Positions 39,331-42,579 of a stretch of DNA of 64,000 nucleotides are shown here, piece by piece. The stretch comes from Eledone cirrhosa (taxonomy: Eukaryota): assembly GCA_964016885.1 (NCBI GenBank), contig OZ024740.1:367598001-367662000 (forward strand). Reading direction: 5' to 3'. A program made the position numbers and the translations under genes. Within the stretch, counting starts at the first letter, position 1. Each line of letters starts with the position of its first letter. Below the pieces are notes generated by a model, which was given only the letters and a program-made list of their open reading frames with translations, was not told where the DNA came from and searched no databases.

Positions 39331-40451
39331 TGAAAAATGATTTAGACTCTTTTGAATATTTTGATTTCGACGAAAGGGGAAAGGTGGAAAGTTATTTTGA
39401 AACATACGTAAAATGGCAGTCGTTTCCACAATTGTCTAACTCTATGTTTTATATAGACATTAAATCTCGGATACTTCTGCACTTCCGGCTAAATTAAATT
39501 AAGGCTGGATGTGCAAAATATTATTTTTTCTTTCAAAAAATGATCGGCGCATTCGGGATTTCATTGCCTAGCATTTGTTATTCTTTGAGATTACACAAGC
39601 ACCTATTAAATAGAGAATATCGGCGGCTAATCCTAAAGCACATTTCATATTTAGATTTGAGAAATCACTCAAATATCATATATTGCAATATATTATGCCA
39701 TATAATCGTATAATTTAAAATGATCGCATTATTGTTCCCACGAAAAGCCGTTAACAATAAATCTAATGACCAAAATAATTTACCAATTTTTGTTTTTTAC
39801 ACAGCCACACCGTATGATTTTTATTTGTCATGTACAATGTCGGTAGCATTATTAACGGATTTTGACTGATTCTAATTCAATCTAACATGGTGGGATTTAA
39901 AGCCAATAAGGACCGATTTAATAATATTGCAAACGCTATAATAAATTGTAAATCTTCCTTTAGATATTTTTCTAAATATTTATAGTGAATCGTGTAATAT
40001 CATGTCTATATGCTTTCTTTTATGTATTAAGAGAAAGAGCCATTCGTATATAGCCAGAATACATCATTTAATGATTTTCGTTTTTCCAGGACATTCTAAG
40101 TGTAAGTAAAGTAAAATAATGCAAACGCGAAATCGAAACTAACTCGAGGGATTAAATCGTTTGGAAAATAATTTCTTTTACTATCATAGTATCAAAATAG
40201 TTAATGCACACGCCCCCCCCCCCCAGACACACACACGCACACACACGCACACACACACACATATATGTATATATACAGAAAAATAACGATTGTCTAACAT
40301 ACGTAAATACAAACAAATATATAGACATTTATATATATATATATATATATATATATATAAATATATATATATATATATATAATCAAGGTTTAGCAAATAA
40401 TGAAAAAGTTTCAAAATGAATTTTAAAAAATTGACTTTACCTACTATAGTT

Positions 40452-40534
40452 ACCTTTACCGATCGGTTTCGAATATCAAAAATAAACGGAGATCATACGG
40501 CCTTTGTTGCAAAGAAAGATTCTCGTCAGAAGGT
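40452..40534 (-). ncRNA. Type-I hammerhead ribozyme
   Basis: Minus strand: ACCTT-CTGACGA-GAAT...ATTC-GAAA-CC GATC GG-TA-AAGGT. Confidence 0.88.
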
Positions 40535-40934
40535 TCTTTTCATTCGAAGAATATAAAATTCTTGAATTTAAATTACGAACTAGCGCTATCCAAAACTGTT
40601 CCCGAGATGAGAGTGAATGAAGTGGATTCAATTTTTTCAAGGGCCGAAGTAAAGATAGAGGCAAAGGGAGGTAGGTCAAATCGGCCGCCACTACCACTAG
40701 CAGCAGTCGGAACGACCAAATTTTTTCTCAACATAGAGGAGGATAGTAATAATAGGATATGTGTTCCTTCACGCACAAGGCGCCAAGGGACGCATGTATT
40801 GTCCAACCAAATGGCAATGTGGTTCAATGGCAGGTTAATAAATTAACGAGCCAGAACATATATAATCAAGGTTTAGCAAATAATGAAAAAGTTTCAAAAT
40901 AAATTTAAAAAAATTGACTTTACCTACTATAGTT

Positions 40935-41017
40935 ACCTTTACCGATCGGTTTCGAATCTCAAAAATAAACGGAGACCATACGGCCTTCGTTGCAAAGAAA
41001 TATTCTCGTCAGAAGGT
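40935..41017 (-). ncRNA. Type-I hammerhead ribozyme (second copy)
   Basis: Same core and stems as 40452-40534. Differences are confined to loop II. Confidence 0.88.
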
Positions 41018-42579
41018 TCTTTTCATTCGAATATATATATATATACATATATATATATATATATATATATATATATATATATATATATATATATATATAT
41101 ATATATATATATATATATATATTATATATATATATATATATATATACAAGTTAATATAAATTAATATATGATAAACACATAAGTATTGTAAATGACCAAG
41201 TTAGCTAGATTGAAAAATACTAATTAAATTAATACAGCTTGCCTGTCTCGATTTAAAATAATAAATCAATAAAAATAAACCCATATTGGTTATAACCATG
41301 ATACCTGGACAAATTTAAATTTCAAAACAAACATTTACAATACACACACTTATGTGTTTATCATATATTAATTTATATTAACTTGTATTTCACGGCTCAG
41401 AAATGCTTCTTTCTTTGAGCTAATTAATTGTAAAGGACTGTTTGAGTTTATAACTCTAAATATAATATATTATATATATATATAGATAGATAGATAGATA
41501 TTCTATATTCTCATACATATATGCTGGTCTTCAGTGAAAGGAAATAGATAAATAGAGGTACTGAGGGGTATATACGTTTTTACATTTTTTTTCATCATTA
41601 TTTAATCTTAGATGAATATCATTTCCCTCTGCAACTTATTACCGCAATAACATTGATAGGGCTGGTTCAATCATTGTGGCAGCTGGAGAAATTGACAATG
41701 AGGGGAAGACATAATACATTGAAATAGTTTTCTTTTAGTTTTGCCGGTGACATTTCTGATCATTTTTATCAACTTTTGTGAGAATTACATGACAATAAAC
41801 ACAGAAAGAAACAGTTAATAGTTGAACAATTAAGGGCTTCAGCCAGTAAAAAGTATCCAGTAAGAAATTATCCATCCATTGGTCTAACGAATTCAAATTT
41901 TCCAGAAAAAACAATGTCAAGTACCGCAGTTCATATTTTTGAGATGACAATATTTATAGGAACATAACAGTGTTTATTTCACAATAACTCTATTTTATCT
42001 TCTTTTTCGTATAGTATAAGATGATGCAATATCATTCTAAAGTCGCATCGTATTTCCAAGGGTGTTTGAAAAAACACATACATCATTTTAACATACACAC
42101 AGATGCAAAAACTCACTCAAACACACACATACACAGATATTGTAATCAGTTGATTCTAATGCGTAATACCAAGGTTGCTAGGAGTTTTATGCATGAAATG
42201 AAATCAATCAGATATTGAACAGTTTTGTGACGTTGAAATTCATATACGAATGAGATATAGCTTTATATTTATTGTAATATTCAGATTAAGACTTATCATA
42301 CATTGACATATATTTTCAGAGTATCTAGTTATTCGGGTATTTTGATTGCTTTGAATTGCTTTCTAAAAGAAAATATTGCTGTGAAACTATGAATTATGTG
42401 ACTGATGATTGTTATGTAAAGATGATTATGTTTTACTGTATATTACGACGTTTTGCTCGTATATTTTTAGTGCACCTTTCTTTTTATATTGAAATATATC
42501 TTGATATTAATATACTATATATTACAGCAGTCAATATGATATAATTTACTATAATATACTACACTTTAATATATTATAA

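Follow-up and report, generated by a model that had tools for sequence, protein, structure and literature searches.

An aged, 5′-truncated retrozyme copy in Eledone cirrhosa and the likely insertion of its family by Penelope-like elements

Within the window, the 64,000-nt stretch of Eledone cirrhosa DNA analysed here as a whole, the minus strand carries an element that is almost certainly a retrozyme. It is an aged, 5′-truncated 1.35-unit copy of a multi-copy tandem unit of 483–485 nt, for which a type I hammerhead is predicted, and it probably entered (TA)n through the reverse transcriptase-endonuclease of a Penelope-like element (PLE). Insertions of this family very probably arise by PLE-driven priming at two sites, S1 and S2, which are paired on opposite arms of head-to-head structures. 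The retrozyme class is already known, and its mobilisation by PLEs has already been proposed from shared ribozymes, co-occurrence and homology to pLTRs. The present analysis adds counts for the two-site, two-arm signature and the observation that a homologous parent is apparently lacking. Table 1 gives an overview of the features in the window.

Table 1 Features of the retrozyme copy in the window (positions in the window; offsets count from the predicted hammerhead cut)
Feature	Position	Strand	Basis or remark
Whole insertion, 5′-truncated 1.35-mer of the 483-nt retrozyme unit	40375..41031	-	repeat comparison and family alignment
Upstream type I hammerhead	40935..41017	-	CTGACGA core 41012-41006; GAAA and helix III 40953-40940; predicted cut 40940/40939
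Downstream type I hammerhead	40452..40534	-	core 40529-40523; predicted cut 40457/40456
483-nt cut-to-cut monomer, predicted linear or circular RNA	40457..40939	-	repeat spacing and hammerhead positions
Site S1, internal copy (TATATAT, +76..+82)	40858..40864	-	40/74 family 3′ ends join (TA)n here
Hairpin-rich tail between S1 and S2, ~106 nt	40752..40857	-	folding; candidate PLE-protein binding region
Site S2 (CCTATTAT, ends +188/+191)	40749..40756	-	29/74 family 3′ ends join (TA)n here; unused by the window copy
(TA)n target tract at the 3′ end of the element	40317..40381		tract scan
(TA)n tract at the truncated 5′ end	41031..41146		tract scan

Repeat comparison revealed a direct repeat of 174 nt (40375–40548 and 40858–41031, 97% identical) with a spacing of exactly 483. 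Together with motif inspection it bears out the first-pass annotation, which had described two minus-strand hammerheads at this distance in a (TA)n setting; motif placement puts both predicted cuts at the positions given there. The 3′ join of the insertion lies within 40375–40381, an interval in which the TATATAT belonging to the unit blends into the target tract. What had been read as ~170-bp repeats around ~310 nt is really a partial tandem of 1.35 units, and the 174-nt repeat is merely the overlap of this tandem, its length being set by random 5′ truncation. As already noticed in the first reading, no coding is recognisable: the element has a single frame of at least 120 aa, which runs on the opposite strand and matches no Pfam family, and a tblastx comparison of the element with PLE coding regions gave no match to them. 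Contigs of three sequencing runs of unknown kind cover the unit; they are uninformative on expression.

On the minus strand each repeat copy comprises helix I (ACCTT/AAGGT, 5 bp), CTGACGA, a 52-nt helix II arm, GAAA, helix III and GTA. Helix III consists of 3 bp and a GAUC loop within the 10-nt palindrome ACCGATCGGT, and the open helix is helix I, which makes the hammerhead type I. A pattern of the hammerhead core was searched in the 3.0-Gb assembly and gave 1,145 exact matches, compared with 0 for the reversed control. Thus the core is not a product of chance. An Rfam scan of the window yielded no match at gathering thresholds, and the free minimum-energy structure of the window ribozymes, and even that of a young copy, is not the hammerhead fold; the ensemble gap between hammerhead and free fold amounts to 2.6 kcal/mol in a young copy and to 5.2 and 8.4 kcal/mol in the window copies. 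Folding energy alone is no evidence, since the free-folding z-scores range from −0.65 to +1.76 for the ribozyme regions and reach −1.95 for the monomer. With Rfam silent and free folding not giving the hammerhead, the case therefore rests on the core, the copy number and covariation.

For covariation 16 ribozymes of the retrozyme family and one sister family were aligned, and 89.5% of the cells are paired (slid controls 25–52%). Helices I and II covary between the family and this sister, with double changes in 7 of 15 pairs, a score that was reached in 0 of 500 shuffles, although this control is inflated by the relatedness of the sequences. As the covariation holds between families that are ~60% identical along the unit (one sister family compared), we conclude that the ribozyme is under selection. 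Another sister family preserves the helix III palindrome through a double change (locus L219). Furthermore, helix I, which lies outside the selecting pattern, varies by 0.010–0.018 compared to 0.076 in the spacer.

Within its family the window copy is an old one: with 6 differences between its repeats in 174 sites, it ranks among the 5 most diverged of 55 multi-unit loci. Four differences are located within the ribozymes: one in the upstream hammerhead, where it breaks a helix II pair (41001), and three pair-breaking changes in the downstream one (40505, 40493 and 40475). The first reading had assigned them to loop II. Indeed, all are beyond the first 4 bp of helix II, but the family forms base pairs there, with a helix II of 7 bp and an inner hairpin. 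Each change disrupts one of these pairs and replaces a letter that 76–77 of 77 loci have. The four differences are thus decay and not tolerated loop variation. Constrained to the hammerhead fold, the upstream ribozyme has an energy of −16.0 and the downstream one of −5.5 kcal/mol, compared with −21.2 kcal/mol in the young copy. The first-pass annotation had spoken of an active or recently active non-autonomous element. Non-autonomy and recent activity are supported for the family (over 1,100 hammerhead cores, arrays with as many as 10 units, units identical to rounding in 8 of 55 multi-unit loci), whereas activity of the window copy is not supported, given its diverged repeats and weakened downstream fold. 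Some cleavage by the window copy is plausible, because both cores, helices I and III and the 4 bp at the start of helix II have remained intact. Upstream of the first cut there are just 91 nt of unit sequence, so that a monomer would require transcripts entering from the flanks.

The family is large. A DNA search gave 117 matches from the best 40 of 2,228 candidates, mostly 95–98% identical and many of them 483–485 nt apart, and 98 of the first 100 hammerhead-pattern matches listed belong to the family. Its 483–485-nt unit is found on many contigs, in tandem arrays that reach 10 units per arm, and copies run from 0.1 to 10 units. Of the earlier reading as a retrozyme with double hammerhead architecture, the non-autonomous retrozyme family stands, while the repeat-spacer-repeat form does not. 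At least three sister retrozyme families (L079–L108, L178, L204–L223) have 481–485-nt units where tandem and the same tail hairpins, and possess their own S1/S2 pair at about +88 and +196. Sister families add 247 hammerhead cores and 1,320 tail-hairpin matches. That several of them keep the 481–485-nt unit down to ~60% identity suggests a long-lived independent lineage. A different tandem hammerhead unit, 310 nt in length and ending in (TA)n, is present at locus L200:193–503.

Insertion anatomy was determined for all 50 family insertions behind the first 100 listed matches (contig C1, 5.7–200.6 Mb), a set picked solely by the hammerhead pattern, from which two sister matches were dropped and in which one array counts as two loci. 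The 74 3′ ends are concentrated at S1 (40 ends at +78 to +87, nearly all at +82) and S2 (29 ends at +170 to +200, nearly all at +188 to +193), with 5 elsewhere. TA-rich DNA follows beyond 69 of the 74 3′ ends, and a TA-rich 5′ flank is present in 16 of 27 single-arm insertions. The exact 3′ join is blurred by a few bases because both sites are TA-like in the unit itself, and target site duplications are unreadable inside (TA)n. The 74 5′ ends are spread evenly over the unit (KS p = 0.94); three of them, but no 3′ end, lie within 5 nt of the cut.

Head-to-head two-arm structures occur 23 times in the 50 insertions, each with its own internal joint, mostly of 0–4 nt overlap. Nineteen of these pairs combine S1 with S2, one combines S1 with S1, and in three one arm ends elsewhere. 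S1+S2 accordingly accounts for 19 of 20 classifiable pairs (p = 1.9e-5). The same combination was seen in 7 of 7 pairs of a second set (27 loci, query-biased towards S1), and in the sister retrozymes the sites are paired in 9 of 9 loci that remained distinct after overlapping ones had been merged by hand. This pairing constrains how PLEs use both target strands, a step that the field has still to resolve. In the family and in two sisters the predicted tail hairpins start just past S1 and stop just before S2, and the first tail hairpin shows pair-preserving changes. A short TA-embedded sequence at L254:7750–7797 and in L180 near 2861 resembles this hairpin (81% over 48 nt). (TA)n tracts are very dense across the whole window.

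Several PLE families are present in the genome, three of them with intact RT-endonuclease frames of 775–784 aa in near-identical copies. The family B protein shows a Pfam GIY-YIG match, with RVT_1 just below the cut-off. Families B and D have a Cys-rich linker ahead of the endonuclease, which resembles Neptune by the description in the available part of PMC8557442, a likeness of sequence and not a placement in a tree. A hammerhead is present in each of families A, B, C and D. Their 3′ ends fall into two clusters per family, followed by (TA)n, at +48/+138 (A), +122/+177 (B), about +35–47/+103 (C) and +75–85/+141 (D). Family D pairs both sites on opposite arms at L195, L201, L225, L226 and 55095–58588 of the window. 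Two head-to-head pairs of family C were unclassifiable by script; a family A "pair" in the window, 7 kb apart and skipping an intervening hammerhead, was left uncounted, and L224, which contains a palindrome, was not relied on. Since the retrozyme carries all marks of PLEs (5′ truncation, tandems, an inverted arm, a tail at one end, two sites), we infer PLE-driven priming. The two-site pattern recurs in autonomous PLEs of the same genome, which lends good support to target-primed insertion driven by PLEs. One family D copy (L228:1137 and 5849) has 10 nt duplicated from precisely the hammerhead cut onwards, as cleavage followed by rejoining might leave behind.

A search for an autonomous PLE sharing the repeat had been suggested in the first reading. 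None with significant similarity was found among the six families A–F that were covered; the genome has at least one more (L255). Family D resembles the retrozyme in the distance of S1 and in the appearance of helices I and III, yet its alignment score was equalled by 90 of 300 local shuffles, and in family F no hammerhead core was detected in locus L250. Other candidates were rejected. Twenty loci obtained with the tail-hairpin pattern all proved to be sister retrozymes or fragments, none being the terminal repeat of a PLE frame; the matches in L195 and L254 are separate short insertions; and the one match to a D-like hammerhead pattern was an older relative of the window retrozyme family.

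The template was addressed by divergence in 314 pieces from 77 loci, which amounts to 0.27% within arms, 0.51% between the arms of one locus and 5.1% between loci. A shared minor allele was carried by all units in 652 cases and by only some of them in 58, and it occurred in both arms 371 times and in one arm 22 times. Nineteen alleles seen at a single locus of the 77 were fixed in all covering units (12 loci), although these "private" alleles may be shared with source loci outside the sample. From the low divergence within insertions and the fixed alleles it follows that each insertion derives from one homogeneous template. This template cannot have been a cleaved linear monomer, because copying continued past the cut, in 24 of 73 arms past at least two cut sites, and 5′ ends show no excess at it. 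A circular template is to be preferred, with modest confidence, to an uncleaved linear one. Near-identical units fit a circle, and a circle explains the regrowth of arrays to 10 units as well as allele fixation; nevertheless, an uncleaved linear multimer from a homogeneous array fits the near-identical units too.

The latter possibility, with the same family and the same two-site priming by a PLE, would take an uncleaved linear read-through RNA from homogeneous source arrays as template. The hammerhead would be a passenger or act later, and no circle would be needed. Homogeneous young source arrays would yield identical units too, the arms cross cut sites unstopped, and autonomous PLEs in the genome likewise form tandems with identical units. 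According to the available text on an anole PLE, mutation of the hammerhead leaves insertion in vitro normal, the RNA mainly used is unprocessed, and the site where reverse transcription begins lacks homology to the cut DNA (PMC11167929); these results weaken both the circle step and a microhomology step. For Xenopus, 8 of 9 dimers are described as not cleaving in vitro in the part of the source at hand (10.64898/2026.07.22.740005). We nevertheless consider linear copying the less likely reading. Each round of it with 5′ truncation would make arrays shorter, whereas arms of up to 10 units exist and the subfamily alleles are fixed across units, so that a one-unit bottleneck or later homogenisation would be needed. 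The covariation of helices I and II, with the selection on the ribozyme that it implies, also speaks against a mere passenger.

Amplification as satellite DNA, by unequal crossing-over or extrachromosomal DNA circles and with an incidental hammerhead, would be in line with homogeneous tandem arrays, and such expansion is discussed for retrozymes in the accessible part of 10.64898/2026.07.22.740005. It is very improbable here, as it leaves unexplained the two fixed 3′ ends with uniform 5′ ends, the (TA)n at nearly all 3′ ends and the S1+S2 pairing with a different internal joint in each of the 23 pairs. Still less probable is the formation of arrays by jumps of the reverse transcriptase between different linear monomers at cut ends. 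The duplication at the cut in L228 is what such jumps could leave, but a pool with 5% divergence would give mosaic arrays and not arms with 0.27%, a gap within 5 columns of the cut was found in only 3 of 115 near-full units, and 5′ ends show no enrichment at the cut; a jump to the same molecule is equivalent to a circle. Least probable of all is an LTR-type retrozyme (two 174-nt terminal repeats, 310-nt body) or, as considered in the first reading, a one-off internal deletion of a coding PLE: the window alone displays two direct repeats round a spacer, but copies of 0.1 to 10 units occur with random 5′ ends, the hammerhead is type I, the spacer is present in every near-full match, which excludes a one-off deletion, and tblastx against the PLE loci yields only a sister retrozyme fragment.

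With a circular template preferred, insertion can be pictured as follows. Intact arrays would be transcribed and, by analogy to other animal retrozymes, self-cleave to monomers that are ligated to circles. The PLE protein, probably as a dimer, would bind the hairpin tail and nick a (TA)n tract on both strands, after which the ends so produced may each prime at one of the two sites through TA microhomology. The reverse transcriptase would copy past the cut site, run round the circle up to 10 times and drop off at random. Finally, the cDNA end would be joined to the flank, giving one arm as in the window copy, or to a second cDNA, giving two arms. A bolder reading, somewhat less likely than not, is a coupled two-primer reaction, in which one PLE dimer with a single circular ribozyme RNA would nick the two (TA)n strands and prime each at a fixed site of its own, the sites flanking the hairpin tail; both reverse transcriptase subunits would travel round the circle, and the resulting cDNAs would be joined head to head. 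If this holds true, the retrozyme would be a long-lived viroid-like RNA parasite that mimics the binding platform of a PLE by structure and has no homologous parent, and it would provide a 483-nt minimal substrate for dissecting PLE integration.

Metazoan non-LTR retrozymes are described, in the available text, with units of ~170–400 nt, with cleavage and circles shown and PLEs proposed as mobiliser (Cervera and de la Pena 2020, PMC7229834). By every testable feature the element fits this group: its tandem unit is short and non-coding and contains a single type I hammerhead, the family is dispersed as dimers to multimers, and autonomous PLEs coexist in the genome. The window family differs by its 483–485-nt unit and the 52-nt helix II arm with inner hairpin; its insertion anatomy is measured, whereas its cleavage and circular RNA are predictions from sequence.

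For vertebrates, the accessible part of a recent study ties non-LTR retrozymes to pLTRs by homology and phylogeny, with 24 of 57 Xenopus families matching Repbase TEs (Li, Clavereau and Pollet 2026, 10.64898/2026.07.22.740005); that part contains no analysis of insertion ends. The window family has two consecutive units with complete hammerhead, which is termed "active" there, falls within the length range of 51–972 bp and co-occurs with PLEs, but it lacks a homologous pLTR among the six PLE families. Plant LTR retrozymes are described in the same partial sources as having a type III hammerhead, true LTRs, PBS/PPT, a 4-bp TSD and a Gypsy helper (PMC7229834; 10.64898/2026.07.22.740005). They likewise have two hammerheads in direct repeats that would release a monomer; the window family has type I instead of type III and no fixed LTR-body-LTR boundaries, and the window element is not a plant-type LTR retrozyme.

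As far as the available parts of the sources go, 5′ truncation, partial tandems, an inverted arm and a 30–40-bp tail at one end are hallmarks of PLEs (Craig et al. 2021, PMC8557442; Adineta Penelope, PMC3846280), so that the one-sided tail itself is already known. With EN+ PLEs of the Neptune and Hydra clades described there the retrozyme shares 5′ truncation, partial tandems, an inverted 5′-truncated arm, the tail at one end and (TA)n targets, a preference of the Neptune/Hydra/Naiad type. It differs in having no ORF, a tail of 106–109 nt and not 30–40, and a unit of 0.48 kb and not 3.5–4.2 kb. Poseidon PAc of Anolis cuts and extends both strands in vitro, and two internal RT start sites define its tail (Frangieh et al. 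2024, PMC11167929, available part); by our arithmetic from that text, these starts are ~85–92 nt after its hammerhead cut. Shared with PAc are two RT starts downstream of the hammerhead cut, the use of both target strands, an AT-rich target and a predicted dimer. The PAc start is an AC-rich stem-loop unlike the target, whereas both retrozyme sites are TA-like and match it, and the pairing of the two sites on opposite arms, measured in the retrozyme, is not reported for PAc in the accessible sections of that paper.

A literature search, with most subscription journals and Repbase outside its scope, returned no paper with paired priming sites in a retrozyme. One more animal retrozyme family would be ordinary; the value lies in the measured insertion anatomy, as the retrozyme itself bears the scars of PLEs. 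A 483-nt unit with two mapped starts, together with young intact PLEs in the same genome, makes the identity of the helper and the question of circle or linear template directly testable.

The window also contains several PLE sequences. The family D insertion at 55095–58588 is a head-to-head two-arm structure, whose plus arm ends at its S1 and whose minus arm ends at its S2. In its hammerhead U and A replace core C3 and G8, which we take to be the known compensatory variant. Five more hammerhead cut sites, of family A or close relatives, are located at 25969, 29985, 46124 and 52904 on the plus strand and at 45887 on the minus strand, and a remnant of a family A RT-endonuclease at 26305–28395. 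Fragments of four further PLE families (F, B, C, E) lie at 2100–5438, 7375–8512 and 30881–31338; young intact copies of families B and F exist at other loci, where the tandem period is ~4.2 kb and 3,531 bp, respectively.
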